Made by a program: the position numbers and the translations under genes | Notes under the pieces: generated by a model | Database searches by the model: none | Told to the model about the DNA's origin: nothing | What the model saw: only the letters and a program-made list of their open reading frames with translations | Shown: one piece after another, positions 789 through 46,033 of the stretch | How the letters are laid out: each line of letters begins with the position of its first letter | Position numbering within the stretch: position 1 is the first letter of the stretch | Assembly (NCBI GenBank): GCA_024639335.1 | Contig: JAHEIN010000002.1 | Span: 13,630-72,015 of the forward strand | DNA length: 58,386 bases | Direction of reading: 5' to 3' | Source of the DNA: a bacterium | Lineage (GTDB): Bacteria > Actinomycetota > Acidimicrobiia > Spongiisociales > ZC4RG35

Positions 789-2914
789 GATGTTCCTTTC
801 TCTCCTTCTTGCTTCGTCGTCCTAGCCGGGACGGCCAGGGCATCCAGCGCGACCCATTCGGTACCCGACCATGCCAGCGGGTTGATTTCGATCTCGACCA
901 TATCGCTGCTCGCAAAACCCAAGCCGAGCGAAACGATGATCTCGCAGAGCCGGGGTGTCGCCTCCGGGTGGATCCGGTCGAGGGCTACGGCCAAGCCGGG
1001 AGCTCGTCGGACGAGTCTCGTTGCCTCTTCAGCGGTCTTCGGGACCAGTCCCATCACGGGGTCGAAACCTTCGGCAGCGATCCCGCCCAACCCAACCAGC
1101 ATCATCGGCCCGAAGACTGGATCGGTCACGGCACCGACGATGACCTCGAACCCGCTGATCTGTTGTTCGACCAGTGCGCCTGCGATTTCTGCATCTGGGC
1201 GGTGTCGAAGAGCACGTGAGGTGACCGCGGTGAACGCTTCGGCGGCGTCCCCGGCTGCCACGCCGGTCTCGATTCCCTCGACCTCGGTCTTGTGGAGGAT
1301 GTCCGGCGAGCAGACCTTGACCACCACCCGCCCACCCAGGCCGCTCGCAATCGCAGCGGCCTGTTCCGCCGACAGGGCGACCTTGCCCTGTGGGATGGCG
1401 ATCCCCCACTCCGAAACCCACTTCTTCGAGGCGGATTCCTCCATTGGAGCACCTGCCTCGACGCGTCCGGCCGCCACGGCGAACGACGTCGAGTCCGGCA
1501 CAGGCGAGGTCAGGCCCCCGAGGGCGCGGACGGCCGACCTCGGCTCCGTCGTCACCGGAAGTCCAGCCATGCGGAGCGCTTCGAGGCCGTGGGCGCCGAC
1601 ATCTCCGGCCATCCAGAGGTGAATCGCCGGTCGAGCCGATGCGATGAGCGCATCGACCCGTTCGGCGGTGTGAGCGGGCGGGTGTGCAGTCGACACAGCC
1701 AAGACGACGTCGTACTCGTCTGCGAAACGATCGACGACGGCACCGAACCGGGAGGCTCCACCGATGATTCCGCCCATGTCGAGCGGGTTGCTCGCTACGC
1801 CGTGTTCGAGGAGATCGTCGCCGAGCTCGGCCATGGTCGCCGGGCCCGGCTGGGGGAGCTCGACTCCGTGTCGTTCCGCCAGGTCGCTGAGCAGGATCGC
1901 CACACCTCCGGAGTGTGTGACGATGCCGACCCGTCTGCCGGCCGGTCGGGGAGCCCGGGCCATGACGTCGGCGATGTCCAGCAATTCGCCCGGCGTCTCT
2001 GCCATGGTGACGCCGAGCGAGGCGAGCACGCCTTCGAGGACGACGGCCGGGCGAGCCATGGCGCCGGTGTGTGTGGATGTCATCGCACTGCCGTGCTCGC
2101 TCGCCCCGAGCCTGCACACCACGACGGGTTTGCCCGAGGCTGAGGCCGCCGATATGGCTTCCAGGAATCGCTGCCCGTTGCGCACGGTCTCCATCACGAT
2201 GGCGATGGTGCGGATGTCGTCGAGCTCGGAGAGCGCGATGATCCCGTCGGCGATGTCGATGTCGCTCTCGTTGCCGACCGAGATCGACACCCCCAGACCG
2301 CCGCCCCGTTCGGCGGCGAGGTTGTGGATGTAGCTTCCCGTGCCTCCGCTCTGTGTGACGAGACCCACGGGACCGGACCGGATCTGGTCGGCAGGGCGAT
2401 CGAGGCAGGTCAGGAAGCTGACGGCGAGCTGTGCGCGCGGCCTGATCACTCCGCCCGAATTCGGGCCGAGGATGCGAACGCCGTGTCGAGCTGCGATCTT
2501 CGACAGCTCACGCTGCGTGGCACTCCCGCTCGACCCCGCCTCGGCGAAGCCGCCGGCGAACACGATGACCACTCCTGTCCCGACCGTGCCGGCGTCGTCG
2601 ACGATTCCCGGGACGGCTGTCGATGGGACCGCCGAGGCCACCAGGTCGGGAGCCTCCGGGAGGGACTGGAGCGAATCGAACATCTCCACGCCGGGCACCG
2701 TAGGGGTGCGCGGGTTGACACCCCAGACCTTTCCGGTGTACCCGACCTTGCGAAGTGATGACAGCACCCGGCCACCGTGCTTCGAGGCATCGTCGGACAG
2801 ACCGACGATGGCGATCGATTTCGGTGCCAGGAGCTGATCGAGATGCGTCACGGTGTTCGGCTCACTCCCGCAGATGGGGTGCGACTTCGGCCGCAAAGAG
2901 CTCGAGGCTGTCAT
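785..2914 (-). CDS. ADP-forming acyl-CoA synthetase family protein (CoA-binding + ATP-grasp)
   Basis: 709-aa ORF with an N-terminal CoA-binding motif KSIAIVGLSDDASKHGG and a C-terminal ATP-grasp-like region. An alternative GTG start at 2851 would remove the 53-nt overlap with the upstream LLM gene. Confidence 0.85.
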   Translation of the reverse strand: MTASSSLRPKSHPICGSEPNTVTHLDQLLAPKSIAIVGLSDDASKHGGRVLSSLRKVGYTGKVWGVNPRTPTVPGVEMFDSLQSLPEAPDLVASAVPSTAVPGIVDDAGTVGTGVVIVFAGGFAEAGSSGSATQRELSKIAARHGVRILGPNSGGVIRPRAQLAVSFLTCLDRPADQIRSGPVGLVTQSGGTGSYIHNLAAERGGGLGVSISVGNESDIDIADGIIALSELDDIRTIAIVMETVRNGQRFLEAISAASASGKPVVVCRLGASEHGSAMTSTHTGAMARPAVVLEGVLASLGVTMAETPGELLDIADVMARAPRPAGRRVGIVTHSGGVAILLSDLAERHGVELPQPGPATMAELGDDLLEHGVASNPLDMGGIIGGASRFGAVVDRFADEYDVVLAVSTAHPPAHTAERVDALIASARPAIHLWMAGDVGAHGLEALRMAGLPVTTEPRSAVRALGGLTSPVPDSTSFAVAAGRVEAGAPMEESASKKWVSEWGIAIPQGKVALSAEQAAAIASGLGGRVVVKVCSPDILHKTEVEGIETGVAAGDAAEAFTAVTSRALRHRPDAEIAGALVEQQISGFEVIVGAVTDPVFGPMMLVGLGGIAAEGFDPVMGLVPKTAEEATRLVRRAPGLAVALDRIHPEATPRLCEIIVSLGLGFASSDMVEIEINPLAWSGTEWVALDALAVPARTTKQEGEKGTS

Positions 2915-3821
2915 GTGCCCCCATGTCGTAGAAGTAGAGGATCATCTCGTCTGCGCCGGCATCCCGGTATCTGCCCAACTCCTCGATCGCCTCGGGAACG
3001 GTGCGGGCGAAATGCTCGGCAGCGAATGCCGCAGGCGTCGAGTTCCGTCGGACGGCGGCCGTCTCCAGCTTGGCGTCCAGATCGGCCTGGTCCCGGCCGA
3101 TCACCGACATCAGGTGCACCGACCGGCCGATCTCGTCGAAGTCGCGCCCCACGTCCTCGCAATGGCCGGCCAGGACGTTCGACTTGTGAACGAACGTCTC
3201 GACGCTGTCTCCGAAGTTGGCGTGATCGCCGTACTTGGCGACGATCTTCAGGGTCCGCTTCTCGCCGCCGCCTGCGATCCACAGAGGCGGGTAGGGCTGC
3301 TGGAGTGACTTCGGATGGGCGATCGCTCCGTCGAGGCGGTAGTGCTCGCCCGAGAACTGCCCGAGGTCGGAGGTCCACATCTCGATGAGCACCTGGGCGG
3401 CTTCCTCGAGCATGTCGAGGCGAATCCCTGCTCTCGGGAAGTCGTAGCCGTAGCCTTCGAACTCGCCGACCGACCAGCCCGCGCCGATGCCGACGTCGAG
3501 CCGGCCTCCGGAGATGGCATCGACCGACAGCGCGATCTTGCCGAGCAGCGAAGCCGGTCGATAGGGGACGCACGTGCACATCTGCCCGAGGCGGACCCTG
3601 TCGGTCGCCACGGCGAGTGCAGCCATCAGGCTCCATGCCTCGAACACGGTCTCCTGGCTGGGCACCGGGTGGGTGTGAAAGTGGTCGTAGACCCACATGG
3701 AATCGTATCCGGCTGCCTCGATTGTCGCCGCCGTCCTTGCGATGTGTGGCCACTGGTCGGCGACCGGCCGACCCACCTGATCCATCTTCCATCCCTGGGG
3801 TACGAATGTTCCGAACCTCAT
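2862..3821 (-). CDS. LLM-class (luciferase-like) F420/flavin-dependent oxidoreductase
   Basis: Family-like sequence begins at MRFGTFVPQGW (ATG 3821), inside a longer 549-aa ORF whose first ~230 aa are Arg/Pro-rich junk. There is an ATGA overlap with the MFS gene stop. Confidence 0.85.
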   Translation of the reverse strand: MRFGTFVPQGWKMDQVGRPVADQWPHIARTAATIEAAGYDSMWVYDHFHTHPVPSQETVFEAWSLMAALAVATDRVRLGQMCTCVPYRPASLLGKIALSVDAISGGRLDVGIGAGWSVGEFEGYGYDFPRAGIRLDMLEEAAQVLIEMWTSDLGQFSGEHYRLDGAIAHPKSLQQPYPPLWIAGGGEKRTLKIVAKYGDHANFGDSVETFVHKSNVLAGHCEDVGRDFDEIGRSVHLMSVIGRDQADLDAKLETAAVRRNSTPAAFAAEHFARTVPEAIEELGRYRDAGADEMILYFYDMGAHDSLELFAAEVAPHLRE

Positions 3822-5008
3822 GTGTGAACCTCCATGATTCCTTCCGTCCTGTATTCCAACTGTTTGCCGCCGATTCGCACGAGCACCGCAGACACGCCGA
3901 GTGCAACTGCCGCAGCCGTCCAGGCGGCTTGATAGCCCTTGGCCTCCACGATCAGCCCGAAGGTGAGCGGTCCCAGGATGCCACCGCCGAACTGGCCGGT
4001 GCCGAGGATCCCCGTTGCCGTTGCCGGTCCGCGCGGGCTCCGCGCCACGACGGCAAAACTCAACAGACTCGGCCACGCCCATCCCGCACCGAACACCAGC
4101 ATCGTGGCGACGACCAGGGCGAGCTCGGACTGGATCGCGCCGATCAGTCCGAACGCAAGTGCGCCCGTCCCGAGGAGCGAGGGGACGATGGTGAAGTGCA
4201 GGTCGGTGCGGAGGTCTCCGACCCATCCCCACCCGGTCCGGCCGAGGATGCCCACGATGCTTCCCACCGCCAGCAACGTGCCGGCCAGCGAGGGGGACGT
4301 GCCGCCGGCAACGGCTGATTCGACATAGAACGCACCCAACGATGCAGTGGCGTAGACGGCGAAGAATGCTCCCACGGACAGTATCCACAGGGGGAAGTGT
4401 TCGACGTCCTTGCCGTGCCCGTCTTCGTGTGCGGCAGCAGGCTGGGTGAGACCGAACCCGGCGATGATCGGCAGCGCCGCGACCCCTGCGAATGCAAAAG
4501 CCCATCGCCATCCGATCGTGGCGCCGATGAGTGGGACGGCGGCTCCGGCGAGCATCGTTGCGTACAGCGCCGACGACTGCTTGACGCCGAAGGCGACTCC
4601 CTGCCGCTCGAAAGGCACGCCGCGTGCCAGCGCGAGGTTCGAGGCGGGGTATGCCAGGGCATTGGCGACCCCGGCGACTGCCAGGAAGAAGGCCAGCTCG
4701 ATCCAGCTTCGCGCCAGCAGGCCGATCCCAGCCGATGACATGAGGCTCAGGCCTGCCGCCACAGCCATGGCTCGCGGGCCCCCGAGGCGTTGCGCAACGG
4801 TGCCTCCCACCCAGGTGAGGCCTGCGGATGCCAGGTAGTAGATGGTCGCCAGGGCCCCCAGGCGGGCTTCGCTGAATCCGAGCTCCGGCCGGATGAACAC
4901 GGCGAGCGCCCCGACGAGGAAGATCGGCAACGCTCCGAGCGTGATCGAGAGCGTCGTCGCCGTCAGCGTTGCGAGCGGATGCTGGGTGAGCGGTCGATCG
5001 CTGATCAC
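3818..5008 (-). CDS. MFS transporter
   Basis: 396 aa with about 12 hydrophobic segments. GTG start in a GTGA overlap with the upstream CoA-transferase stop. Paralogous in style to the MFS gene at 28588-29781. Confidence 0.85.
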   Translation of the reverse strand: MISDRPLTQHPLATLTATTLSITLGALPIFLVGALAVFIRPELGFSEARLGALATIYYLASAGLTWVGGTVAQRLGGPRAMAVAAGLSLMSSAGIGLLARSWIELAFFLAVAGVANALAYPASNLALARGVPFERQGVAFGVKQSSALYATMLAGAAVPLIGATIGWRWAFAFAGVAALPIIAGFGLTQPAAAHEDGHGKDVEHFPLWILSVGAFFAVYATASLGAFYVESAVAGGTSPSLAGTLLAVGSIVGILGRTGWGWVGDLRTDLHFTIVPSLLGTGALAFGLIGAIQSELALVVATMLVFGAGWAWPSLLSFAVVARSPRGPATATGILGTGQFGGGILGPLTFGLIVEAKGYQAAWTAAAVALGVSAVLVRIGGKQLEYRTEGIMEVHT

Positions 5009-6201
5009 TCGGATGGCGTCCAGGAGCCGATGATGCCGGTCTCGATCAGCCGGGCGACTTCATCGGGATCGATCCCGAGCCGTTGCTCGAGCACACGGCG
5101 GCTGTGTTGCCCGAGCATGGGAGCCGGTTTCCTCGGCATCGACCAGTCACTGAACTTGACCGGTGACGGCGGGTACCTGATCTCACCCAGCGTTGGGTGC
5201 TCGTACGTCTGCACCATGTCCCGGGCGACGACCTGAGGGTGGGTGAACACCTCTCCGACGTCGTTGACCGGTGCCGCCGGGATGTCGTGCTCGTCCAGAA
5301 TCCGCGCCCATTCGGCCTTCGGCTTCGTCTTGAACGTCTCGGTGAGGATGGGAACGATCTCGTCACGGTTCGCCACCCGCATGGCGTTGTTGGCGAATCG
5401 GGGGTCTTCTGCGAGCTCGGGTCGTCCAATCGCACCGCAGAGGTTTCGCCAGAACTTCTCGTCTCTGGCGGCGACCACCACGTATCCGTCGCCAGCCTCG
5501 AATGCCTGCCACGGAACCATGTGGGCATGTGCCGTCCCCTGACGTGTGACGTCCTTGCCCGAGTTCAGGTGATCGAGTGCGTCGTAACTGAGCATCGAGA
5601 CGAGCGAGTCGAGCATCGCGACGTCGGCGTGCCGTCCGTGGCCTCCCATTCCTCGCTCGGCCAGAGCGGCGAGGACCGAGATGCAAGAGAAGATGCCGCC
5701 GGCGATGTCTGCGAGCGGTATCCCCACCCTGGCAGGTGACCCGTCGGGGTCACCGGTGATGTCCATGTGCCCACTGAATGCTTGAACCACCAGGTCGAAG
5801 GCGGCCTTGTCCTTGAGGGGACCGGTTTCGCCGAACCCCGTCACCGACACCGTGATGATGTCCGGGTTTCGCTGCTTCAAGGTCTCGTGGTCGATCCCCA
5901 GCCGCTTCATGACACCCGGTCGGAAGTTGTCGACGACGACGTCGGCCTCCTCGACGAGCCGATAGAAGACATCGAGCCCCGCCGGCGTCTTGAGGTCGAT
6001 GACGACGCTCTCCTTGCCGCGGTTCATGAACAGGTGGATTGCGCTCTCACCGCGGAGGGGAGCGATCTTCGGGTTGCGTGCAGTGTCGCCCCTGATCGGC
6101 TCCACCTTGATGACTTCGGCGCCGAGTTCGGCGAGGATCGCCCCGCCGTAGGTTCCGGCGATCACCTGGCCGAGCTCGATGACCGTGACGCCGGTCAGCA
6201 T
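5005..6201 (-). CDS. Family III CoA-transferase (CaiB/BaiF type)
   Basis: 398 aa. The N-terminus VIELGQVIAGTYGGAILAELGAEVIKVEP is typical of CaiB/BaiF-type CoA transferases. Confidence 0.9.
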   Translation of the reverse strand: MLTGVTVIELGQVIAGTYGGAILAELGAEVIKVEPIRGDTARNPKIAPLRGESAIHLFMNRGKESVVIDLKTPAGLDVFYRLVEEADVVVDNFRPGVMKRLGIDHETLKQRNPDIITVSVTGFGETGPLKDKAAFDLVVQAFSGHMDITGDPDGSPARVGIPLADIAGGIFSCISVLAALAERGMGGHGRHADVAMLDSLVSMLSYDALDHLNSGKDVTRQGTAHAHMVPWQAFEAGDGYVVVAARDEKFWRNLCGAIGRPELAEDPRFANNAMRVANRDEIVPILTETFKTKPKAEWARILDEHDIPAAPVNDVGEVFTHPQVVARDMVQTYEHPTLGEIRYPPSPVKFSDWSMPRKPAPMLGQHSRRVLEQRLGIDPDEVARLIETGIIGSWTPSE

Positions 6202-6232: not shown

Positions 6233-7327
6233 TCACCACTCGAGCTTCACCACTTCGCCCGACGAGGCCGATTGGTCGACTGCTCGCGAGATCTTCAGCA
6301 CATCGATACCATCGGCGCCGGTGGCGAGGATCGGGTCCTGACGGTTCTGACCGACCGAGTTGATGAACGCGTGGGTCTCTTCCTGCATGGCTCCGAAATG
6401 CTCCCCGAGCGCCCAGTCGCCCGGCATGTAGGAACCGAGCATGGCGACGTTCATCGTCGCATCTGGCGTGTAGGGGGAGGGGATGGCCTTGCGGGAAGCC
6501 ATCAGTACGTCGCGATGGTCGTCCTTGACGCTCACGGTGCCCTCGCGCCCGAACAACTCGAAGTCCATCGTTGCCACATATGCGGGCCAGAACTCGGGCA
6601 GCTCCCAGCTGACTCCCAGGTTCGCGACCATGCCGTCATCGTAGGTCAGGACACACCACGTCGAGTCGGGGGTGTCGTAGTCGTCGTGGATGCGTCCCTT
6701 CGTCGAGCCGGCGGCGTAGACGGCGGTGGGCAGCCTGCCGTCGACATACCAGTTCAGGAGGTCGAACAGGTAGGTCATCGTGTTGATCGATGGCGTGGTC
6801 GTGCCCGCTCGGGAGATGACGGCTCTCGCAACCGACTCTGCGAGGTAGATGGTCGCCTTCGCGCTCGTCACGTCGCCGATGTAGCCCTTGTTGACGTGCT
6901 CCTTGATGGCCAGGTAGCGCCGGCGGAACCGTTGGGTGTACCCGGTGTACACCCGGACGCCGTACTCCTCGGCCGTCGCCAGCAGCTTGTAGCCCTCCTC
7001 GGGGAGGATGGTGAAGGGCTTCTCGATCAGCACCGTCTTTCCGGCTTGGATCGCGGCCATCGCCGGCTCGTAGTGGGCGTCTTCGGTGGACGCGATGATC
7101 ACCGCGTCGACATCGTCCCTCGACACGATGTCGAGTGCGTTGGTCGAGGAGATGTCTGCTTCGCACGAGTCGGCCAATCGATCGACCTTGGCAGGATCGA
7201 TGTCACACACCGCGAGGAAATCCACCGACGGGTGCCGGTGGGCTATCTCCGCCCGCAGGCTTCCGATGGATCCTGCGCCGACGACAGCCACGCCGACGCC
7301 GCCGTCGATGTACCTGCTTCTGGTCAT
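6233..7327 (-). CDS. Gfo/Idh/MocA family NAD(P)-dependent oxidoreductase
   Basis: 364 aa with an N-terminal dinucleotide fold VAVVGAGSIGSLRA and an EKP motif (VLIEKPF). Confidence 0.85.
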   Translation of the reverse strand: MTRSRYIDGGVGVAVVGAGSIGSLRAEIAHRHPSVDFLAVCDIDPAKVDRLADSCEADISSTNALDIVSRDDVDAVIIASTEDAHYEPAMAAIQAGKTVLIEKPFTILPEEGYKLLATAEEYGVRVYTGYTQRFRRRYLAIKEHVNKGYIGDVTSAKATIYLAESVARAVISRAGTTTPSINTMTYLFDLLNWYVDGRLPTAVYAAGSTKGRIHDDYDTPDSTWCVLTYDDGMVANLGVSWELPEFWPAYVATMDFELFGREGTVSVKDDHRDVLMASRKAIPSPYTPDATMNVAMLGSYMPGDWALGEHFGAMQEETHAFINSVGQNRQDPILATGADGIDVLKISRAVDQSASSGEVVKLEW

Positions 7328-8223
7328 GGCGTCTCCTGGTTCTGTCTGGCGGAGGCGCGTTCGGCTGCCTCGGCTCTGGCGATCACGGTCCTAGCAACTC
7401 GTGCAACTGCGTAGTCGACCATCTTTCCATCCACTGCGATGGATGCCGATCCCTCGGCTTCAGCCTGCTCGAATGCTTCGAGCACCTTGCGCTGATAGGC
7501 GACGACTTCGGGTGCAGGGGTGAAGACCTCGTTGATGACCGCGACCTGGGCGGGGTGGATCGCCACCTTCCCGACGTAGCCGAGACGTCTGGCTAGTTCG
7601 GTCTCGACCCGGAGGGCTTCGAGGTTGCGGAAGTCCATGAACACGGCTTCGAAGGGGTGTTGGATGCCTGCCGCCCGAGCCGACGCCAGCACTTGTGATC
7701 GCGTATACATCAGCCCGGTGCCCTCGGGCGTCCACTCGCACCCGAGGTCGGCGACCAGATCTCCCTGTTCGCCTCCGCCGAACATGATGCATTCGACCCG
7801 ATCGCTCGCGATCGCCATGTCATAGGTGTTCCGGCTGCCCAATCCGCTCTCGATGAGCGGGATGATCTCGACGCTTCCGTGCTCGTGACCGGCGACTCGT
7901 TCGAGTGCGGTGAGAGCGCCGTCGAGCTCCTTGATGAGGTCGGCGTGTTCTGCCTTGGGGATCATGATGCCGGCGACGCCGGCCCGGCCGGCCGCGACGA
8001 CGTCGTCCCACATCATGTCCGTCGTCGGCCCGTTCGTCCTCACGTACAGCGGCACGTGGGATTCGGGGAGATCGGAGAGCAGTTCCCTCGCCGTCGTCTT
8101 CGCCTCCAGGGCGACGGCGTCTTCGAGGTCGACGATGACTGCGTCGGTCCCCGACGCGATCGCCTTGACGATCAGGTCGCGGCGGTGGCCGGGTGTGAAC
8201 AACATCGAACGCAGTGGCTGCAT
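7324..8223 (-). CDS. HpcH/HpaI aldolase / citrate-lyase beta subunit-like (CitE; acyl-CoA lyase type)
   Basis: Starts at MQPLRSMLFTPG (ATG 8223, preceded by GAAGGAG) and carries a VIVDLEDAV motif. The longer 408-aa ORF prefix is low-complexity. Confidence 0.85.
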   Translation of the reverse strand: MQPLRSMLFTPGHRRDLIVKAIASGTDAVIVDLEDAVALEAKTTARELLSDLPESHVPLYVRTNGPTTDMMWDDVVAAGRAGVAGIMIPKAEHADLIKELDGALTALERVAGHEHGSVEIIPLIESGLGSRNTYDMAIASDRVECIMFGGGEQGDLVADLGCEWTPEGTGLMYTRSQVLASARAAGIQHPFEAVFMDFRNLEALRVETELARRLGYVGKVAIHPAQVAVINEVFTPAPEVVAYQRKVLEAFEQAEAEGSASIAVDGKMVDYAVARVARTVIARAEAAERASARQNQETP

Positions 8224-8236
8224 CAGCAGTTCTCCT

Positions 8237-9202
8237 TCACTTGATCGCCATCGGATTGAGCGGGGACCCGACCGCACGTGTGAACGGGAGCGGTGGTCCG
8301 CAGAACATGAACTCGTAGACGCCGTCGGTCGCACAGTCGTCGGCGATCGGGTCGAGGTCGAAGATCTCGCCGAGCCAGAGTCCCATATGGACGATGAGGA
8401 CGATGTGGAGCGGTTGGAACGTGTCCGGCGTCTCGTTCGGGCGCACCTCGAGGCCCCAGGTATCGGTGGCGATGGCTGCGATGTCGCGCTCGGCGATCCA
8501 GTCGACGCTGCCCAATCCGAGACCGGGGGCGTCACCCCCGGCATAGTCACCCCAGTCGCCGTTGGAGCGTGCCATCGTCATGGCGCCGGTCCGCACGAAG
8601 ACGAAGTCGCCTTCACCCACCTCCACGCCTGCGACGTCGGCGGCCTGTTGGAGTTGCTCGCCGTCGATCGCATGACCGGGCTCCAGCCAGTCGACTCCCT
8701 GCGCTCTCGGAATGTCCAGCAGCACACCTCGGCCGACCATGGAGTCGGCGGCGTTCTTGACGGAGTTCTTCATGGCGCCTTTGCTGCTCACCCACTCGGC
8801 GCCGTACCCGTTGTAGATCTGGTTCTCGAATGCGACATGGCCGAGTGCGTCCCATTGGGTGCCGCTCTGGAGCGGCATGATGATGAGATCGTCGGTGCCC
8901 CGGAAGTGACGCTCGTTGCCGCCGTAGAAGTCCCGGAGTGACGAGCCGGCGATCACATCGGCGCCGTCACGGATCATCAGGTGGATCGGGTTGAACCGGC
9001 CAAAGGCACCGGTCTGCGGTCCGGCGTCGTCGTAGGGGAGGGCCATCGAGATCGTCCGGCCTCGATTGACCAGCCCGGCTGCCGCCACGACGTGCTCGGG
9101 CCTGACCAGGTTCATGGTCCCGCGTTCGTCGTCGTCGCCCCATCGTCCCCAGTTGCTGTGTCTGGCCGACAGTTCCCGAACTGTCTCGATGGTTGGCTCC
9201 AT
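8237..9202 (-). CDS. Cyclase-family protein (kynurenine-formamidase-like fold)
   Basis: Starts at MEPTIETV (ATG 9202). SGTQWDALGHV resembles the HxGTHxDxPxH region of putative cyclases. Confidence 0.75.
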   Translation of the reverse strand: MEPTIETVRELSARHSNWGRWGDDDERGTMNLVRPEHVVAAAGLVNRGRTISMALPYDDAGPQTGAFGRFNPIHLMIRDGADVIAGSSLRDFYGGNERHFRGTDDLIIMPLQSGTQWDALGHVAFENQIYNGYGAEWVSSKGAMKNSVKNAADSMVGRGVLLDIPRAQGVDWLEPGHAIDGEQLQQAADVAGVEVGEGDFVFVRTGAMTMARSNGDWGDYAGGDAPGLGLGSVDWIAERDIAAIATDTWGLEVRPNETPDTFQPLHIVLIVHMGLWLGEIFDLDPIADDCATDGVYEFMFCGPPLPFTRAVGSPLNPMAIK

Positions 9203-9431
9203 GGTTCGACTCCCGTCTCGTCCGACTGGTTGGCGCAAAAAATGAGACGCCACGATCGTGCTCTCATCGAACGATATGCATTCGCGACACGGCCCGCAAC
9301 CAAAACCCCACTCGGTCATCGATTGATTCTGCTGTGTAGAGTGGCATGGGACCACGCAGGCCAAGGTGTCTTGTAATTCGGGACGCATTGGAAACCGCGA
9401 GCCGAGACGGGAGCAAACCGTGGAACAGTCG

Positions 9432-18646: not shown

Positions 18647-19423
18647 TCAGAAGCTCCCCCGATACGAGCCGCCGTCGAGTTGGAGGTTCTGGCCCGAGAT
18701 GTACCCGCTCATGTCGGCGCAGAGGAAGGCGCATGCGCGTCCGAACTCCTCGGGTGTGCCCATCCGACCCGCCGCGATGCTGTCGACGATTTCCTTCCGG
18801 GCGTCTTCGTAGCTCATCCCGGACGACTCGGCGCGCTGCCTCGCCATGTACCGGGACCGCTCGGTGTCTATGCGCTCCGGGAGCAGGTTGTTGATCGTCA
18901 CGTTGTCCTTGGCGACGTCCCGCGAGAGCGCCTTGCACGCCGCCGTCAGCCCGGCGCGCGCACCGGCGGACAGACCCATCACCGAGAACGGCGACTTGAC
19001 CATCTGCGATGTGATGTTGACGATCCGCCCGAACCCGCGGGCCTGCATGCCGGGGACCACCGCCTTGATCATCATGATCGGCGAGAGCATGTTGGCCTCG
19101 ACCGCCCGCAGCCAATCTTCGTACTCGAACGAGAGCCAGTTGCCCGGAGGAGGCCCCCAGTTGTTGTTGATCAGGATGTCCGGGTCCGGGCATGCTTCGA
19201 TCAGTCGGGCACGGCCCTCGACCGAGTTGACGTCTGCGGCGACGGTCGTGACTTCGACGCCGAACTCGCTGAGTTGGCCCGCCGCCGTGTCGAGATGCTC
19301 CGGGTTGAGCCCGTTGATCGTGACATCGGAGCCCTCGGATGCCAGCGCCGTGGCACACGCAAGGCCGAGCCCGCGACTCGATGCGGTCAACAGGGCGCGC
19401 CGTCCCGACAGTCCAAGGTCCAT
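18647..19423 (-). CDS. SDR-family oxidoreductase (atypical; S...R where YxxxK is expected, by eye)
   Basis: Starts at MDLGLSGRRALLTASSRGLG (ATG 19423), preceded by GAGGAGGAA. Confidence 0.8.
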   Translation of the reverse strand: MDLGLSGRRALLTASSRGLGLACATALASEGSDVTINGLNPEHLDTAAGQLSEFGVEVTTVAADVNSVEGRARLIEACPDPDILINNNWGPPPGNWLSFEYEDWLRAVEANMLSPIMMIKAVVPGMQARGFGRIVNITSQMVKSPFSVMGLSAGARAGLTAACKALSRDVAKDNVTINNLLPERIDTERSRYMARQRAESSGMSYEDARKEIVDSIAAGRMGTPEEFGRACAFLCADMSGYISGQNLQLDGGSYRGSF

Positions 19424-19509
19424 CCGATGTTCCTCCTCGTGGTCAGAGGCTTGATCGTAGGACCTGACCACGTCGGCGAGGGCGATGGAATCGGGGCTAC
19501 GCTCGCAGC

Positions 19510-20736
19510 GTGACCGACTTCACCGAACTTCCGATCCCCACGGTGGACTTCGACCTCGTCGGGCCCGCTGTCGGGGAGCGGTTTCCCGACGTCGTACTCC
19601 CTGATCAATCCGGGCAGCCCGTCGACCTCCACGAACATCGGGCAGGGCGGAAGGCCCTGGTCGTGTTCCACCGGAGTGCCGATTGGTGACCGTGGTGCCG
19701 AGCGCAGTTGGTCGAGCTGCAGCGGACATTCGCATCGCGTGACGAAGGCGTGGCCGTCTTCGCGATCAGCTACGACCCCGTCGAGACCCTGGCTCGGTTC
19801 AGCCAGGTTCACGGAATCACCTACCCCCTGCTCTCCGACGTCGGCAGCGTCGTCATCACCGAGGTCGGCGTGTTGAACACCACGATCGAACAGGAGCGAG
19901 CCGCGTACGGACGCCCGATGGAGGACCGCCACCGGGGCATTCCCTATCCCGGCACCTTCTTCCTGGACGAGTACGGAGTCGTCATCGACAGGCGCTTCGA
20001 GCAGTCCCACCGGATCCGCCCGACGGCAACCACCCTCCTCAAGCAGCTTCTCGGCGACGATGACGTCTCGCCCGCAGTCTCGGCCGAGGCAGCTTCTCCC
20101 GGGGTGCGGGTTGCCGCCTGGCTCGACACCGACGTCGTCTTCGCCAATCAACTCCAGGAGGTGGTGGTCCGGTTCGACATGGATCCCGACGTCCATTTGT
20201 ATGTCGACCCCGTGCCCGAGGGCTTCACAGCCGTGGCGGCCACGCTTGCGGGCGACGAACGGCTCCGACCCGAACCCGTCGTCATCGGCGACGGCCATCC
20301 CTTCGAGGTCGATGGCCTGGACGAGTCGTTCTCGGTCGTCGAGGGCGCAGTGGAGACCTCCATCCCGTTCGTGCTGCTCTCCAACCGCGACACCGCAGGC
20401 GATCCTGACAGACCAGTAGAGCTGCGTGTGAACGTCTTCTATCAGGCGTGTACCTCTGCTGCGTGTTTCATGCCCGAAGAGCTCACTCTGCGGTTGCCGC
20501 TCATCGAGCGAGCGAATCCGGGATACGAGACTGCGGAAGCGGCTGCGATCTCTCCGTTGGCGTTCCGCAGGATCGTCGAGGAGCCCAGAAGTGATGATGA
20601 GCTGCTCCGGCTCGTCAATGCTGCGCTGGAAGGGACCAGCGTCTCCGCCGACCAGCTGGCAGAGGTCCTCGGAAAGCTGGCAGACGACGACTTCATCGCT
20701 CGAAGGTCGGACGGTACGTGGGGCACCGCCGGCTGA
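19510..20736 (+). CDS. Peroxiredoxin/redoxin-like protein with in-frame TGA (19687-19689) at the first Cys of the CPxC motif (candidate selenoprotein, W-U-P-W-C), fused to an nDsbD-like Cys-pair domain and a C-terminal extension
   Basis: From GTG 19510, 59 codons of redoxin N-terminus (GERFPDVVLPDQSGQPVDL...KALVVFHRSADW) run into the TGA. The same frame then continues PWCRAQLVELQ..., which is the 342-aa ORF listed from TTG 19708. A SECIS-like hairpin lies downstream. Confidence 0.65.
19698..19725 (+). promoter_or_regulatory. SECIS-like hairpin 3' of UGA 19687
   Basis: Stem 19702-19709 pairs with 19715-19723 (8 bp, one G.U pair, bulged A at 19721). The apical loop GGUCG (19710-19714) starts 20 nt after the UGA. 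Two extra pairs: 19698-19699 with 19724-19725. Confidence 0.45.
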
Positions 20737-20755
20737 TCGCAGGTACGGTCTTGGG

Positions 20756-21706
20756 ATGACGACCATCAAGATCGCGGTTCTCGACGACTATCAGGGTGTT
20801 GCCGAGCATTCGGCGGACTGGGGCCGTCTCGATGCCGAGATCGAGTTCTTCGGTGAGCACCTCGGCTCACGAGATGTCGTCGAAGCCCGCCTCGCCGACT
20901 TCGACATCGTCGTGGCGATGCGCGAGCGGACGCCATTCCCTCGTGAGCTCCTCGAGTCGTTGCCTCGGTTGCAGTTGCTGGTGACCACCGGCATGCGCAA
21001 TGCAGCCATCGACCTCGAAGCAGCGGCGAATGCCGGGATCACGGTCTGCGGAACCCCGTCTCCCGGTCACGCAACGGCGGAGTTGACGTTTGGGCTCGTC
21101 CTGTCGCTCTCGCGGGGCCTGCTCGACGAGATCGCCTCGGTGCGTTCGGGCGGATGGCAGTCGGGGCTCGGGCGGGACCTTCGTGGTGCCACGCTCGGCG
21201 TGATCGGTCTCGGGCGACTCGGTGCACAAGTGGCCGGGTTCGGGCAGGCGTTCGGGATGAACGTGGTCGCCTGGAGCGAGAACCTCACCGCCGAGAGGAC
21301 CGACGAAGTCGGTGTCGGGTTGGTCGACCGGAAGACGCTGTTCGCAGATTCCGACTTCGTGACAGTCCACCTCAAGCTGTCGGAGCGGTCCACAGGGCTG
21401 ATCGGAGCCGAAGAGATCGCTCTGATGAAACCCACGGCGTTTCTGGTCAACACCTCGCGGGCGCCGATCGTCGAGACGGAAGCGCTGTTGGAGGCCGTCC
21501 GATCCAATCGGATCGCCGGCGCCGCAGTTGACGTGTTCGATGTCGAGCCACTGCCCGGTGATCATCCGATCAGGACCGAACCCAGGATCCTCGCCACGCC
21601 TCACATCGGGTATGTCACCGCCGAGACGTATCGGATCTTCTACGAGGCAGCGGTCGAGGACATCGAGGCATGGCAGGAGGGCGCACCGACCCGCGAGCTC
21701 ACGTGA
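20756..21706 (+). CDS. D-isomer-specific 2-hydroxyacid dehydrogenase family protein
   Basis: Starts at MTTIKIAVLDDY (ATG 20756) and carries LGVIGLGRLGAQVA, NTSRAPIVETEAL and TPHIGY. Confidence 0.88.
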   Translation: MTTIKIAVLDDYQGVAEHSADWGRLDAEIEFFGEHLGSRDVVEARLADFDIVVAMRERTPFPRELLESLPRLQLLVTTGMRNAAIDLEAAANAGITVCGTPSPGHATAELTFGLVLSLSRGLLDEIASVRSGGWQSGLGRDLRGATLGVIGLGRLGAQVAGFGQAFGMNVVAWSENLTAERTDEVGVGLVDRKTLFADSDFVTVHLKLSERSTGLIGAEEIALMKPTAFLVNTSRAPIVETEALLEAVRSNRIAGAAVDVFDVEPLPGDHPIRTEPRILATPHIGYVTAETYRIFYEAAVEDIEAWQEGAPTRELT

Positions 21707-39159: not shown

Positions 39160-39828
39160 ATGCCGAACATCACGATGCTCGAAATCGACGACCTGATGGA
39201 GTCCGAGCTCGCCGGATTCGTCAAGAAGTGCCTGCGGCATCGCGCCCCCGACCCGGCGTTCCACGCCATCCAAGGGCACAACCCGACCCTGTCCAAGAAG
39301 CTCTACATCGCGTGGGGGACCGTCTTCAACACGGGCGTGATCGACCATGGGCTGAAGGAGATCATCCGCGTTCAGCTGTCGCGCGCTGCCGATTGCAACT
39401 ATTGAGGCAACGTTCGATCCGCTTCGGCGAAGCGGAACGGGCTCACCGAGGAGCGCATCGACGAGGGCATCGACCAATGGCGCACGAGCCCCAACTTCTC
39501 CGAGGCCGAGCAGATCGCACTGGAGTACAGCGAGCTCATGCAGTTCGCACCAGACAAGATCGACGCATCCTTCTACGAGCGGCTGGGCCGCCACTACACG
39601 CAGGCCGAGATCGTGGAGCTGGGCGTGTTCATCGGGTTCAACGTCGGCTATCACACCTTCTTTCGGACACTCGACTTCTACCCGATGTTCACCCCCGATG
39701 GGCGGCTCGTCAGCCAGGAGGAGTCCCGCCGGATCTACGGGGACACACCCATCTCACACAACGACGACAGAGTCGTCCGAGCTCTCGCAGAATCGCCAGA
39801 GGATGCTGATGATCCATCCCATCGGTGA
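39160..39828 (+). CDS. AhpD/carboxymuconolactone-decarboxylase (CMD) family protein with in-frame TGA (39403-39405) at the second Cys of the CxxC motif (candidate selenoprotein, C-N-Y-U)
   Basis: The 81-aa ORF 39160-39405 ends ...QLSRAADCNY-TGA. The same frame (ORF 39538-39828 is in phase) continues GNVRSASAKRNGLTEERIDEGIDQW...EIVELGVFIGF and aligns by eye with the adjacent paralog. GGAGGAGACGAA RBS. Hairpin downstream. Confidence 0.7.
39411..39439 (+). promoter_or_regulatory. SECIS-like hairpin 3' of UGA 39403
   Basis: Upper stem CCGCUU(C) 39419-39425 pairs with (G)AAGCGG 39429-39435. Apical loop GGC (or CGGCG). Lower stem CGUU 39411-39414 pairs with AACG 39436-39439, with a 4-nt CGAU bulge. 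The loop starts ~20 nt after the UGA. Confidence 0.5.
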
Positions 39829-40339
39829 AGACGTCGCCAGAGCGCCCGGCCTCATCACAACCGAGCAGTCGTTCACGCGACTGAGCGGCGGGGACACCAC
39901 CTTCCCCCGGATCCTCGCTCACGTCCCGGGCTACGCAGAAGCGATGTGGGACGCCATGTCCGAAGCGCTGTTCGAGGGTGGAGTCGACCACACGCTCAAG
40001 GAGATCATCCGAATACGCCTTGCGAGGACCGCAGCCGATCCCTACTTCGCAGGCCTGCGGTCGGTCCAGGCGGCTGAGTCGGGTCTGACCGAGGATCGGA
40101 TCGACGCCGGATGTGCCGACTTCGAAGACGATGCGCAGTTCAGCGACTCCGAGAAGTGGGCGTTGCGATATGCGTCGCGAATGTACGAGGACCCGGCCGG
40201 CGTCGACTCGGCCTTCTACGAGGAGGGAAAGCGGCACTTCACCGAGGCGCAGATCATGGAACTGGGCGGGCTCATCGCCGTCTTCCACGGGATGTCGGTG
40301 TTCATGTCGACTCTGACCGGCGGACTCGGTGGGACCTGA
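39809..40339 (+). CDS. CMD/AhpD-family paralog lacking the redox Cys pair (D-P-Y-F in place of C-x-x-C/U)
   Basis: MIHPIGEDV, with AGAGG 6 nt upstream. An alternative ATG is at 39803; the listed ORF begins at 39698. Contains LKEIIRIRLARTAADPYFAGLRS...EAQIMELGGLIAVF. Overlaps the 3' end of the preceding gene by 20 nt. Confidence 0.8.
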   Translation: MIHPIGEDVARAPGLITTEQSFTRLSGGDTTFPRILAHVPGYAEAMWDAMSEALFEGGVDHTLKEIIRIRLARTAADPYFAGLRSVQAAESGLTEDRIDAGCADFEDDAQFSDSEKWALRYASRMYEDPAGVDSAFYEEGKRHFTEAQIMELGGLIAVFHGMSVFMSTLTGGLGGT

Positions 40340-40354: not shown

Positions 40355-42637
40355 ATGAAGACCAGGACGACCGTGACGCACTGGGGGGCCTACGAGGTCG
40401 ACAGCGACGGCACGCATGTCACGGGCGTACGGCCGTTCTCCAAAGATCCCGACCCTTCTCCGATCGGGGCGTCGCTGGACGCCGTCACCAGGAGTCGGGT
40501 GCTCCGGCCGGCGATTCGCCAGAGCTGGCTGGATGGTGGTCCGGGAACCCGCGGTGACCTGCGCGGAGTCGAGCCCTTCGTCGAGGTCGCTTGGGACACC
40601 GCGCTGGATCTGGCGGCTTCCGAGCTCGATCGAGTGCGGTCGACGCACGGCAACCGCGCCATCTTCGGTGGTTCCTACGGCTGGTCGAGTGCGGGCCGAT
40701 TCCATCATGCCCAGAGCCAACTCCACCGCTTCCTGGCGGTGATCGGTGGGTACACCGACAAACGCGACACCTACAGCCACGCAGCGGGAGAGGTCATCAC
40801 CCCGCACGTCGTGGGACACGGCTACTGGGACCTCCAGCAGGCCCACACGTCGATGTCGGTGATCGCCCAGTACACCGATCTCGTGGTGTCCTTCGGCGGG
40901 ATTCCGCTGAAGAACGCTCAGGTGCAGAACGGGGGGATGGGGCGCCACACGCTGCGCGGCTGGCTCCAGGCCGCCCGCGATCGCGGGACCCGGTTCGTCA
41001 ACGTCTCGCCGACACGCGACGACGTCGCCGCCGAACTCGACCCTGAATGGCTCGCGCCACGCCCCGGCAGCGATGTGGCCGTCATGGCCGCCATGATCCA
41101 CACACTCGTGACCGAGGATCTCGCCGACGAGGGATTCCTCGAGACACACTGCGTCGGCTGGCCGGAGTTGCGGTCCTATGTCCTCGGGGGAGCCGATGGC
41201 ACGCCGAAGACCGCAGAGTGGGCGGGAGCCCTCTCGGATCTGGACCCCGATCGCATTCGCCGCCTCGCCCGGGAGCTCGTGGAGTCGCGGTCGATGCTGA
41301 ACATCTCATGGAGTCTCCAACGTTCGGACCACGGTGAGCAGACATGGTGGATGTTGATCGCGCTGGCGTGCGTCGTCGGACAGATCGGGCTTCCGGGCGG
41401 CGGTTTCGGCATCGGATACGGGGCCGTTGCGTCAGTGGGCAACGGCGCCCCCCGGCGTGCCTTTCCTGCTCTCGGGCGGCCGGTGAACCCAGTGGACGAC
41501 TTCATCCCCGTGTCGCGGATCGCCGACATGCTGTTGCACCCCGGAGCGCCGTTCACCTACGACGGCGAGACTCGCAGTTACCCGTTCATCGACTTGATCT
41601 ACTGGTCAGGTGGCAATCCCTTCCATCACCATCAGGATCTGAACCGGTTGACGACTGCCTGGCAGCGACCCTCGACGATCATCGTCAACGAGCCGTTCTG
41701 GACGAGCACGGCAAAGCGAGCCGACATCGTGTTCCCTGCGACGACTCCGCTGGAACGTCGTGACATCGGCGGATCGGCAAGAGAAGACTTCCTCTTCGCC
41801 CTCGAGCCGGTCATCGATCCGGTCGGAGAGTCCAGAGACGATTACCAGATCTTCTCCGATCTCGCGACGCGACTCGGAGTCGAAGCGGAGTTCACCGAGG
41901 GTCGCACTTCGGACGAATGGGTCCGCCACCTCTACGAATCCTTCGAGAGCCGGTACCCCGACTCGCCGACCTACGACGAGTTCGTCGAGGCGGGGTTCAT
42001 CCAGTATCCGGAGACCCCTGACGCCGTGAAGGTCCTGTTCGATGCCTTCAGGGCGGACCCCGAAGGCAGCCCGCTCCCAACCCCATCGGGCAGGATCGAA
42101 CTGGACTCGTCGACGCTTGCTCGTTTCGGGCATCCGGACTGTCCTTCGCATCCGATGTTCCTCGCGCCGCACGAGTGGCTCGGTGACGTCGGCGAGTACC
42201 CGCTTCATCTGTTGTCCAGCCAACCGTCGACCCGGCTCCACTCTCAACTCGATCACGGCGCGACCAGCGCAGCCAGGAAGATCGACGGTAGGGAGGTGAT
42301 GCGGATGCATCCGGCCGACGCCGCGGCGCGCGACATCTCCGACGGCGACACGGTTCGGGTGTTCAACGACCGTGGAGTCTGTTTCGCAGGCGTCGCGGTG
42401 ACCGACGGCATCCGGTCTGGTGTCGTCGATCTCCCGACCGGCGCCTGGTACGACCCGGTAGATCCGTCGATCCCCGGATCACCATGTCGCCACGGCAACC
42501 CGAATGTCCTCACCAGAGACGAGGGCACCTCTTCCCTTGCTCAGGGGCCTGTGGCGCAGAGCTGCCTCGTCCAGGTCGAGCGGGCACCCGATGCGCCGAC
42601 GCCCGACCCCCACGCTTCCCCCGACATCATCGGCTGA
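40355..42637 (+). CDS. Cytoplasmic molybdopterin (bis-MGD) S-/N-oxide reductase, BisC/TorZ-like (DMSO reductase family type III)
   Basis: 760 aa with no Tat signal and no N-terminal Fe-S Cys cluster. THWGAYEV, FGGSYGWSSAGRFHHAQSQLHRFL and DTYSHAAGEVITPHVVG closely resemble the biotin sulfoxide reductase N-terminus. Confidence 0.9.
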   Translation: MKTRTTVTHWGAYEVDSDGTHVTGVRPFSKDPDPSPIGASLDAVTRSRVLRPAIRQSWLDGGPGTRGDLRGVEPFVEVAWDTALDLAASELDRVRSTHGNRAIFGGSYGWSSAGRFHHAQSQLHRFLAVIGGYTDKRDTYSHAAGEVITPHVVGHGYWDLQQAHTSMSVIAQYTDLVVSFGGIPLKNAQVQNGGMGRHTLRGWLQAARDRGTRFVNVSPTRDDVAAELDPEWLAPRPGSDVAVMAAMIHTLVTEDLADEGFLETHCVGWPELRSYVLGGADGTPKTAEWAGALSDLDPDRIRRLARELVESRSMLNISWSLQRSDHGEQTWWMLIALACVVGQIGLPGGGFGIGYGAVASVGNGAPRRAFPALGRPVNPVDDFIPVSRIADMLLHPGAPFTYDGETRSYPFIDLIYWSGGNPFHHHQDLNRLTTAWQRPSTIIVNEPFWTSTAKRADIVFPATTPLERRDIGGSAREDFLFALEPVIDPVGESRDDYQIFSDLATRLGVEAEFTEGRTSDEWVRHLYESFESRYPDSPTYDEFVEAGFIQYPETPDAVKVLFDAFRADPEGSPLPTPSGRIELDSSTLARFGHPDCPSHPMFLAPHEWLGDVGEYPLHLLSSQPSTRLHSQLDHGATSAARKIDGREVMRMHPADAAARDISDGDTVRVFNDRGVCFAGVAVTDGIRSGVVDLPTGAWYDPVDPSIPGSPCRHGNPNVLTRDEGTSSLAQGPVAQSCLVQVERAPDAPTPDPHASPDIIG

Positions 42638-44932: not shown

Positions 44933-45004
44933 CGCTGGCGAACGGAGGGTGCGCATGAGCGATTGCACGGTGATTCCGGCCCGCATCGGACGGGCCTGAT
45001 CGGG

Positions 45005-46033
45005 ATGTACGGATACCGTATCGATCAATGGGGAGCCGAGCCGACCTGGCAACCGCTGCCGGACCCGGTCGTCGGGCCGGGTGAGGTGCTCATCGACGTC
45101 GAGGCATGCGGGGTCGGCCTGACCGTCCTCAACTGCATCAACGGTGATCTGTCGAATGATCCGGCGCGGTTGCCGAGAGTCCCGGGCCACGAGCTCGTGG
45201 GGCGCGTCATCGATGGCGGTCCCGGCACCGACACACTGGTGGGCAGGCGCGTTGTTGCCTACTTCTATCTCACGTGCGGCGCGTGTGCCATGTGCACCGC
45301 GGGTCGCGATTCGCTGTGTGAGCGTCTCGGAGGCTGGGTGGGGGTCCACACCGATGGTGGCTATGCGCCCCGAGTGGTCATTCCGGCTCACAACGCCATT
45401 CCGGTCCCGGACGATCTGGATCCGCTTTCAGCCACCGTGGTACCCGACGCCGTTGCCACGCCACTGCACGTCTCGGCGCGCGCAGGCATCGGACCGGACG
45501 ATCGCGTCGCCGTGTTGGGAGCCGGCGGCGGTGTTGGAATCCACATGGTGCAGGTTGGCCTATCCACCGGCGCTGCAGTCGCCGGGTTGGACATCGTCGA
45601 GGCGAAACTGACCCAGATCGAGCGCTTGGGTGCGACAGCAGTCGACTCCAACGACCTGACGAACCTCGATGCTTCAACGCTGTTCGCCGACGGTCGACCC
45701 TCGGTGGTCGTCGATCTGCTGGGGAGCGTTGAAGCGACCCGCTGGGGACTGGACTCCCTCGAACCCGGTGGGCGAATGGTTGCACTCACGACCTTCAGGG
45801 ATCGGCTCGTCCAGATCGAGTCGAGGGAATTCGTCTTCGGTGAGATCTCGATGATCGGATCGCGCTACGCCACGAGGGCCGAAGTCGCTGAAGCCGGTCG
45901 ACTCGTGGCGGCGGGTGACATCACCCCCGTGATCGGCGTGGTCCGTGGGCCGGGCGACGTCCTGGAGATCCACGAAGAACTGAGGTCCGGGACCGTTGTC
46001 GGTCGCGGTGCATTGGATTGGAGCAAGACATGA
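45005..46033 (+). CDS. Zinc-dependent alcohol dehydrogenase family protein
   Basis: Starts at MYGYRIDQWG. Contains GHELVG and the structural-Zn Cys cluster CGACAMCTAGRDSLC. Confidence 0.88.
   Translation: MYGYRIDQWGAEPTWQPLPDPVVGPGEVLIDVEACGVGLTVLNCINGDLSNDPARLPRVPGHELVGRVIDGGPGTDTLVGRRVVAYFYLTCGACAMCTAGRDSLCERLGGWVGVHTDGGYAPRVVIPAHNAIPVPDDLDPLSATVVPDAVATPLHVSARAGIGPDDRVAVLGAGGGVGIHMVQVGLSTGAAVAGLDIVEAKLTQIERLGATAVDSNDLTNLDASTLFADGRPSVVVDLLGSVEATRWGLDSLEPGGRMVALTTFRDRLVQIESREFVFGEISMIGSRYATRAEVAEAGRLVAAGDITPVIGVVRGPGDVLEIHEELRSGTVVGRGALDWSKT

Follow-up and report, generated by a model that had tools for sequence, protein, structure and literature searches.

The window analysed here, a 58,386-nucleotide stretch of contig JAHEIN010000002.1 from a member of the Acidimicrobiia, carries on its plus strand, at 19510–20736, what is very probably a complete selenoprotein gene, with a GTG start, 408 codons including one codon for selenocysteine (Sec), and a TGA stop at 20734–20736. 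In this reading frame GTG 19510 is the first start after an in-frame stop at 19465–19467, and the 59 sense codons that it opens (VTDFTELPIPTVDFDLVGPAVGERFPDVVLPDQSGQPVDLHEHRAGRKALVVFHRSADW) run up to a TGA at 19687–19689. Past that TGA the same frame reads PWCRAQLVELQRTF... and closes at 20734–20736, giving a read-through product of 408 amino acids, Sec counted, whose sole in-frame TGA sits in the motif W-U-P-W-C. The putative Sec (U60, codon 19687–19689, plus strand) is the first residue of the UxxC in this motif, and its partner is Cys63 (TGC, 19696–19698, plus strand). The start, the 59 codons, the position of the TGA and the length of the read-through product had all been given in the original prediction, made from the letters of the window, and they are confirmed in the sequence.

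The mechanical list of open reading frames (ORFs) began the gene at TTG 19708–19710 of the plus strand, a false start that is also picked by gene callers and that gives a truncated form of 342 amino acids (P0001), on record only on a 2.6-kb contig. That this call is a truncation that removes the active site, as had been proposed, is supported by the relatives, in which the upstream N-terminus is conserved in frame; an ATG stands at the equivalent start position in L001, L002, L004, L005, and L145 (MTDFI.LPIPE...). GC contents at codon positions 1, 2, and 3 are 0.80, 0.41, and 0.78 before the TGA and 0.70, 0.45, and 0.80 after it, so that the high third-position GC noted earlier holds on both sides, and because codon-position GC matches on both sides we read a single coding frame across the TGA. 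Other data might have corrected the TGA, but an independent Logan assembly (L138, run SRR12825416, 2578 bp) has one mismatch to the window and an identical TGA. Since 40 of the 42 window genes have TGA as their normal stop, the codon is not reassigned here. A scan of 19300–20900 for promoters and terminators found none.

The in-frame TGA is strongly conserved among relatives, 403 of which were returned by a protein search. Gene calls begin only past the TGA in 114 of the 119 homologues nearest in the database, many of them with “MQLVELQ” or “MVELQ” as their first residues. Three others are full-length Cys homologues, P0057 (WCPYC), P0058 (WCPSC), and P0094 (WCPLC), and they bear out the proposal that the TGA stands where a W-C-P-x-C motif has its first Cys. 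The last two, P0060 and P0064, show Trp in place of Sec (WWP[FY]C). P0060 was rejected as a Trp variant: it comes from a short contig (L139) whose underlying DNA reads TGA, and its “Trp” is evidently the product of translation at the source with a code in which TGA means Trp.

A scan of genomes, one per species, gave 17 loci, 16 of which cover the site. All 16 have TGA at the Sec codon, in the context ...HRSADW-TGA-P[WFY]C, and all 16 have Cys at the position of Cys63, so that U-P-[WFY]-C is kept throughout. These loci come from metagenome-assembled genomes (MAGs) of Acidimicrobiia, Gammaproteobacteria (“Ca. Rariloculaceae”), and Rhodospirillaceae; two loci of the set are titled Verrucomicrobiales and Chthoniobacterales MAGs, the Chthoniobacterales one not covering the site. 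The Acidimicrobiia relatives are 59–64% identical to the window protein and have the same three domains, and those from the gammaproteobacterial and Rhodospirillaceae MAGs are about 31% identical. In L001–L005 the tBLASTN matches cover query residues 1–407.

Metagenome contigs were scanned with the pattern R-S-A-x-W-TGN-P-x-C-x-x-[QE]-L-V, in which the third base of the Sec codon was left free and the Cys63 codon was held as TGY. The 121 matches comprised 117 with TGA, 3 with TGT (Cys), and 1 with TGG, which is the alternation of TGA with Cys codons that had been suggested as a check. In all 121 the upstream N-terminus is conserved in frame, and U-P-[WFY]-C shows occasional other residues. An in-frame TGA that is kept among relatives, is rarely replaced by Cys, and has conserved sequence on both sides is the standard mark of a selenoprotein in comparative work.

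Some individual loci deserve separate mention. The metagenome contig with TGG (L021, Ga0163150_10068084) has a real Trp codon at the Sec position, and its downstream hairpin, described below, is still paired at six of six positions; possible explanations are a recent change from TGA to TGG, an error in the reads, and inactivation of this copy. L145 (GCA_964196515.1) carries at 2796–5084 tandem two-domain and three-domain paralogues, each with a TGA in W-U-P-W-C. The gene calls split the three-domain copy into a 59-amino-acid ORF and a truncated product, and the two-domain copy is likewise broken into short upstream fragments. L092 holds two family members on opposite strands.

Downstream of the Sec codon lies a conserved 17-nucleotide stem-loop (19704–19720, plus strand), a candidate for the core of a Sec insertion sequence (SECIS) that is marked by covariation and is part of the minimum free energy (MFE) fold of the window. 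Its 6-bp stem pairs 19704–19709 with 19715–19720 around the loop GGUCG (19710–19714) and begins 14 nucleotides past the UGA. Counting from the U of the UGA, the core occupies nucleotides 18–34. In the window MFE fold the six pairs 18–23/29–34, with the loop at nucleotides 24–28, are extended at 19702–19723 of the plus strand by G16-C37 and C17-G36, with a bulged A35, to a stem of 8 bp. The 8-bp hairpin with a bulged A and a GGUCG loop that was originally described is thus present in the window, but only its upper six pairs and the 5-nucleotide loop are conserved across 132 distinct TGA sequences. Columns 16 and 17 show no consistent pairing with columns 35–37 in the relatives, and the bulged A is specific to the window.

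All six pairs form in 121 of these 132 sequences and five form in the remaining 11. Covariation was counted on 130 distinct 50-nucleotide alignment rows. Compensatory changes occur at three pairs: 18-34 (G-C 90, C-G 29, U-G 2), 21-31 (G-C 101, A-U 23, G-U 5), and 22-30 (C-G 116, U-A 13, U-G 1). In the same rows 98.6% of stem cells are paired, against at most 39% when the partners are slid by 1–3 columns, and the 67 double-change cells compare with 15.7 ± 3 in shuffles, none of 500 shuffles reaching as high. Because the hairpin sits in a conserved peptide (Q-L-V-E/Q-L), synonymous codons were also resampled with each gene’s own codon usage; 15.5 full hairpins were expected under this null, and 121 of 132 were observed. 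Leu codon 11 ends in G in 131 of 132 sequences, against a background of about 51%. The metagenome search pattern had left the 3' arm of the hairpin free. By these comparisons, the needs of the protein sequence fall far short of explaining how well the hairpin is conserved. The loop has the form N-G-U-N-N with G25 and U26 invariant, and the three TGT forms retain 5, 5, and 2 of the six pairs.

In the SECIS of Escherichia coli fdhF, a bacterial element bound by SelB, the upper stem-loop has 17 nucleotides (nucleotides 15–31), an 11-nucleotide spacer, a bulged U17, and G23/U24 in the loop (PMC8659212). The window hairpin resembles it in lying within coding sequence, immediately 3' of the UGA; in having a 17-nucleotide core, here nucleotides 18–34, with a lower stem that is dispensable in fdhF (PMC8659212); and in carrying G-U in the loop, at G23/U24 there and at G25/U26 (loop positions 2 and 3) here.

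Genes of the Sec machinery and a second family of candidate selenoproteins are found near several relatives. In metagenome contig L067 a tRNA-Sec gene with anticodon TCA (complement 1871–1966) precedes a family member on its own strand, 77 nucleotides away; that family member has a signal peptide and a seeming frameshift in its N-terminal region. When the surroundings of the relatives were searched by tBLASTN with approximate E. coli SelA, SelB, and SelD queries, the only gene found was selD, and only in gammaproteobacterial loci. In nine of them (L009–L017, “Ca. Rariloculaceae”-like), which may represent one lineage, it follows the family gene downstream at a distance of 1.3–4 kb. In L016 an Ndh-SelD fusion gene (about 6960–9236) starts directly after the family gene; it scores 479 bits for TIGR03169 and 282 bits for TIGR00476, both above cut-off, and joins a pyridine-nucleotide-disulfide oxidoreductase to a selenophosphate synthetase with the motif C-G-G-C. 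The same approximate queries gave no Sec genes within ±10 kb in L143–L145, and ARAGORN found one tRNA-Phe only in L001–L017. L002, L004, L005, and L006 have AhpD-like CxxU genes with an in-frame TGA at 2–4 kb from their redoxin genes. Within the class Acidimicrobiia itself, selA, selB, selC, and selD have been reported in all 84 complete Actinomarina genomes (bioRxiv 10.64898/2026.04.03.716425).

The N-terminal half of the product is a thioredoxin-fold domain of the AhpC/TSA-Redoxin type (residues 21–174; 19570–20031, plus strand). With Cys in place of the stop, the read-through product matched PF00578 (AhpC-TSA) at residues 21–159 with an E-value of 4e-24 and 85.3 bits, against a cut-off of 26, and PF08534 (Redoxin) at 2e-16. 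The redoxin hidden Markov models therefore run across the TGA, the result anticipated by the original prediction. AlphaFold2 models were built for the truncated P0001 (predicted local distance difference test score [pLDDT], 92; predicted template modeling score, 0.84) and for the Cys homologue P0058 (94.5 and 0.90). In Foldseek searches the N-terminal domain of the P0058 model matched best on the peroxiredoxins AhpE and BCP/PrxQ, with target-normalised template modeling scores of up to 0.83.

The active site, in turn, is not that of a canonical peroxiredoxin. Against the thioredoxin-like structures 2ls5 and 3or5 (Protein Data Bank [PDB]), the segment “sadWCpwCr” aligns to “WCgvCr” and “WCppCr”, an alignment that puts Sec60 at the N-terminal, nucleophilic position of CxxC. 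Against peroxiredoxins, Cys63 lines up with the peroxidatic Cys and Sec60 with the Thr of TxxC; the PxxxTxxC motif is absent, its Thr column being taken by Sec60 and its Pro column not being conserved. At the column of the peroxiredoxin catalytic Arg, “aYRGlFliD” of 6khx faces “pYPGtFflD”, with Pro147 in place of Arg, and this Pro is invariant in 120 of 120 sequences. Thiol:disulfide oxidoreductases carry a cis-Pro at the position of the peroxiredoxin catalytic Arg. The protein therefore combines a peroxiredoxin-like fold with what looks like an active site of the thioredoxin CxxC type, and, because the catalytic Arg is replaced by Pro, it is probably a thiol:disulfide oxidoreductase and not a canonical peroxidase. 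The label “peroxiredoxin-like” in the original prediction accordingly suits the fold, and probably not the chemistry.

The middle of the protein (residues 207–326; 20128–20487, plus strand) is a DsbD-alpha-like immunoglobulin-fold domain, which scores 31.9 bits with PF11412 (DsbD_N; cut-off, 25). Its top Foldseek match is the N-terminal domain of ScsB (6c29, E = 2.5e-6). When a profile of the middle domain was aligned with the E. coli DsbD N-terminal domain, YQaC(x4)C.lPe faced YQGC(x5)CYPPE (YQGCADAGFCYPPE), placing C314 (20449–20451) and C319 (20464–20466), both on the plus strand, on C103 and C109 of DsbD. Unlike the profile, a single-sequence phmmer search of this domain against the PDB found no match. 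C314 and C319 are invariant in 120 of 120 sequences.

A C-terminal tail of about 70 residues (20527–20733, plus strand) follows. In the AlphaFold2 model it has a pLDDT of 90–98 and the order helix-(strand)-helix-helix-strand-strand, and in Pfam it gives sub-threshold hints only, all to winged helix-turn-helix families (PadR, MCM_C, HTH_20, and GMT-wHTH); on the model, the tail is winged-helix-like. It is limited to the three-domain subfamily of Acidimicrobiia type, being absent from the gene calls of about 265 residues of two-domain homologues and from the gammaproteobacterial loci. By inspection, the N-termini of the window protein and of the Acidimicrobiia-type members have no signal peptide; the soil and gammaproteobacterial members have signal-peptide-like N-termini and lack the tail. 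The 408-residue window protein showed no further Pfam domain and no visible hydrophobic segment, and a membrane beta domain was not found in it.

This architecture invites comparison with DsbD and ScsB. Like them, the window protein has a thioredoxin-fold domain of CxxC type together with a DsbD_N domain carrying a pair equivalent to C103/C109, and by analogy the likeness suggests an intramolecular dithiol-disulfide relay. Unlike DsbD, it has no membrane beta domain, its domains stand in the order thioredoxin-like and then alpha, and its thioredoxin-like domain comes from the AhpC/TSA-Redoxin family, not from DsbD gamma, and uses Sec.

Taken together, the alignments indicate that the product is most likely a reductase working by selenenylsulfide/selenol-thiol exchange. 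The strongest competing view is that it is a selenoprotein acting as a peroxidase, a Sec-peroxiredoxin in which Sec60 or Cys63 attacks peroxide and the DsbD-alpha-like pair or an AhpD-like protein resolves or recycles the product. The best Pfam and structural matches are indeed peroxiredoxins (AhpC-TSA at 4e-24; AhpE and BCP), Cys63 stands in the peroxidatic-Cys column, and AhpD-like genes recur beside family members. AhpD is the reductant of AhpC in mycobacteria. The gene for the Cys form P0058, moreover, overlaps a BCP gene in a thiol-antioxidant island. Yet the catalytic Arg has become an invariant Pro and the Thr of TxxC has become Sec, and W-C/U-x-x-C together with that Pro is the signature of reductases of the TlpA, ResA, and DsbE type, so that we regard peroxidase activity as unlikely. 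In the same way, the family shares with AhpE and BCP/PrxQ its fold, its best structural matches, and a Cys63 in the peroxidatic column, but it differs from Sec-containing peroxiredoxins (TxxU) in that Sec replaces the Thr of TxxC and not the peroxidatic Cys, besides the change of Arg to Pro.

Whatever the chemistry, the evidence of conservation and covariation makes it very probable that UGA 19687–19689 is decoded as Sec and that this Sec belongs to the active site of a redox protein with a thioredoxin fold. Several results weigh against this conclusion or against the model built on it. selA, selB, selC, and selD were not found in the 58-kb window by Pfam, ARAGORN, or tBLASTN: ARAGORN reported no tRNA there, tBLASTN with approximate E. 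coli SelA, SelB, and SelD queries gave no match, and by Pfam the 30 genes at 13–51 kb are dehydrogenases, hydrolases, transporters, and molybdoenzymes; for the genes at 52–58 kb, and for a few near the 5' end, the check for Sec genes was by tBLASTN alone. The folding energy of the 64-nucleotide region is no better than that of shuffles (z = +1.0); because such stability is usual for GC-rich sequence, energy was dropped and the evidence for the hairpin taken from comparison with relatives. Stem and loop lie within a conserved peptide, so that the protein explains part of the sequence conservation, and the invariant G25 and U26 of the loop are positions 1 and 2 of a Val codon and hence also explained by the protein. 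Rfam gave no SECIS or other credible RNA family, either in a scan of the window at gathering thresholds or in a permissive scan of 19600–19800, as is expected, since bacterial SECIS elements are poorly modelled there. The hairpin also departs from that of fdhF in its spacer (14 nucleotides in the family, 11 in fdhF) and in its perfect 6-bp stem, which has no counterpart of the bulged U17; the 5-nucleotide loop, N-G-U-N-N, is a further difference. Finally, the model of a relay in which an AhpD-like protein is the partner draws its support from homology and from gene neighbourhood, and the AhpD-like gene is 19.7 kb away here.

Two other accounts of the TGA dispense with Sec. The codon might specify one of the standard amino acids (Trp, Cys, or Arg, through near-cognate tRNAs or a lineage-specific reassignment), and the real TGG beside an intact hairpin in L021 would fit this. 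However, TGA ends 40 of 42 window genes, the same TGA recurs in unrelated phyla with the standard code, and the alternates are Cys codons, as expected of Sec/Cys pairs. The residue occupies the nucleophilic position of CxxC, at which neither Trp nor Arg would be active; family members occur in physical linkage with selC and selD; and the “Trp” of P0060 is a mistranslated TGA. We consider such decoding highly improbable. Least credible of all is that the TGA is a genuine stop, in a pseudogene or a split gene, or else an assembly error, with only the TTG-19708 product or nothing being made: it is annotated so here and in 114 of 119 homologues, and no Sec machinery was seen in the window, but the truncated product would lack thioredoxin-fold strands, helix alpha1, and the whole redox motif, more than 130 sequences from different phyla have the TGA at this very codon behind 59 codons conserved in frame, the independent assembly agrees, and a covarying hairpin follows the codon.

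If, as we conclude, Sec is inserted, a scheme for its insertion and use can be outlined, whose inferred parts are the binding of SelB, the partners, the direction in which electrons flow, and the role in the cell. By analogy with E. coli fdhF, SelB carrying Sec-tRNA(Sec) would be recruited by the stem-loop at 19704–19720, and Sec would be inserted at 19687. Sec60 and Cys63 would form a W-U-P-W-C center at the CxxC position of oxidoreductases of the TlpA, ResA, and DsbE type, with a cis-Pro-type Pro147 where peroxiredoxins hold their catalytic Arg, and would cycle between the selenol/thiol and selenenylsulfide states. The center may then exchange with Cys314/Cys319 of the fused alpha-like domain, which would in turn serve partner proteins, so that one soluble chain would carry out a counterpart of the gamma-to-alpha step in DsbD. 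Proteins of the AhpD-like type, selenoproteins among them, are plausible redox partners, being recurrent neighbours of the family.

The AhpD-like gene of the window (39160–39828; CMD domain, motif C-N-Y-U, TGA at 39403–39405), 19.7 kb from the redoxin TGA, looks equally genuine as a candidate selenoprotein gene. By eye, its 6-bp hairpin starts one nucleotide closer to the UGA than that of the redoxin gene. L145 has an 80%-identical orthologue of this gene with the same TGA, the third TGA-bearing gene at that locus, and the CxxU genes near the redoxin genes of L002, L004, L005, and L006 are more distantly related to it. Directly downstream in the window, at 39893–40306, lies an AhpD-like paralogue of 38% identity with a degenerate motif, “AADPYFA”, and neither Cys nor Sec; the AhpD-like gene and its degenerate paralogue also form a pair in L145. 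Just past the pair, at 40355–42637, is a molybdopterin oxidoreductase of 760 amino acids (Molybdopterin_N, Molybdopterin, and Molydop_binding) with no in-frame TGA. An ADH_N/ADH_zinc_N gene followed by an amine-oxidase-like flavoprotein gene occurs near the AhpD-like gene both in the window (44963–47667) and in L145 (6246–8896), which hints at partial synteny between the window and the L145 MAG. The window neighbours have no counterparts around L001–L005, and the flanks of the redoxin gene are not syntenic. Since the local genes encode catabolic enzymes and transporters, the operon context gives no clue to function.

The gene for the Cys form P0058 (L140–L142) lies in a dense island of thiol-redox genes, with the BCP gene overlapping upstream. 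The island also includes a second AhpC/TSA-Redoxin gene (Prx5-like by inspection), two glutaredoxin-like genes, a DsbA/Rv2466c-like gene, and genes for OsmC, the beta subunit of a ferredoxin-thioredoxin reductase, and a ThiF-rhodanese protein, all of them apparently Cys using.

Selenoproteins described as “Prx-like thiol:disulfide oxidoreductases” are defined by pfam00578 together with UxxC or UxxU (PMC9312934, PMC13188914). Judged by domain and motif alone, the window gene, with its PF00578 domain and W-U-P-W-C, falls within that definition, and its kind is therefore already known. In the Global Ocean Sampling (GOS) survey, “Prx-like 1” comprised 225 Sec and 2,740 Cys forms (PMC2398784). By domain and motif the window protein resembles the Prx-like selenoproteins (representative, WP_010940744.1) in its AhpC/TSA fold, in having Sec first in UxxC, and in the existence of rare Cys homologues; it further shares with them a SECIS hairpin just past the UGA, an occurrence in marine and soil metagenomes, and AhpD-like selenoprotein neighbours (PMC2398784, PMC13188914). 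It differs from them in the fusion of the redoxin domain to a DsbD-alpha-like domain, to which the Acidimicrobiia subfamily adds the winged-helix-like tail, and from GOS Prx-like 1 in that the subfamily is nearly all Sec (117 TGA to 3 TGT among matches to the flanking-motif pattern). In the searchable literature we found no description of the DsbD-alpha-like fusion, the winged-helix-like tail, or the near-exclusive use of Sec.

No NCBIfam model matched the window protein at its cut-off. The model NF040769 (SelL-related redox protein), likewise a Prx-like redox family related to a selenoprotein, reached 29 bits against a cut-off of 120 over residues 24–110, and by this score the window protein is not a member. 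The homologues listed with NCBI names (P0082, P0084, P0087, and P0108) are truncated forms.

A more ambitious proposal is that the fusion of redoxin and DsbD-alpha constitutes a distinct family, almost always using Sec and tied to selenium or thiol trafficking and not to general antioxidant defence. We hold this to be quite doubtful. Were it true, the family would represent a soluble “mini-DsbD” relay, with selC or Ndh-SelD neighbours in some lineages and AhpD-like neighbours in others, and the apparently cytoplasmic three-domain form could couple a Sec center to the binding of nucleic acids or partner proteins, acting as a redox sensor or regulator.

These findings do not overturn current understanding; they are solid rather than surprising, and they concern a known but widely misannotated family. 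As deposited, 114 of the 119 nearest homologues are truncated at the N-terminus and have lost the active site, and hundreds of gene calls in metagenomes from soil and sea would be put right by a family-specific model that combines U-P-[WFY]-C with the 17-nucleotide hairpin at +18. About 97% of the pattern matches retain Sec, and the short, gap-free, richly covarying candidate SECIS is a good test case for recognition by SelB outside the enterobacteria. Beside the AhpD-like gene, the window gene is a second probable selenoprotein gene on an Acidimicrobiia-like contig and supports the use of selenium in a group where Sec use has only recently been reported. The DsbD-alpha fusion and the AhpD-like, selD, and selC neighbours lead to testable hypotheses on the function of this class of proteins.

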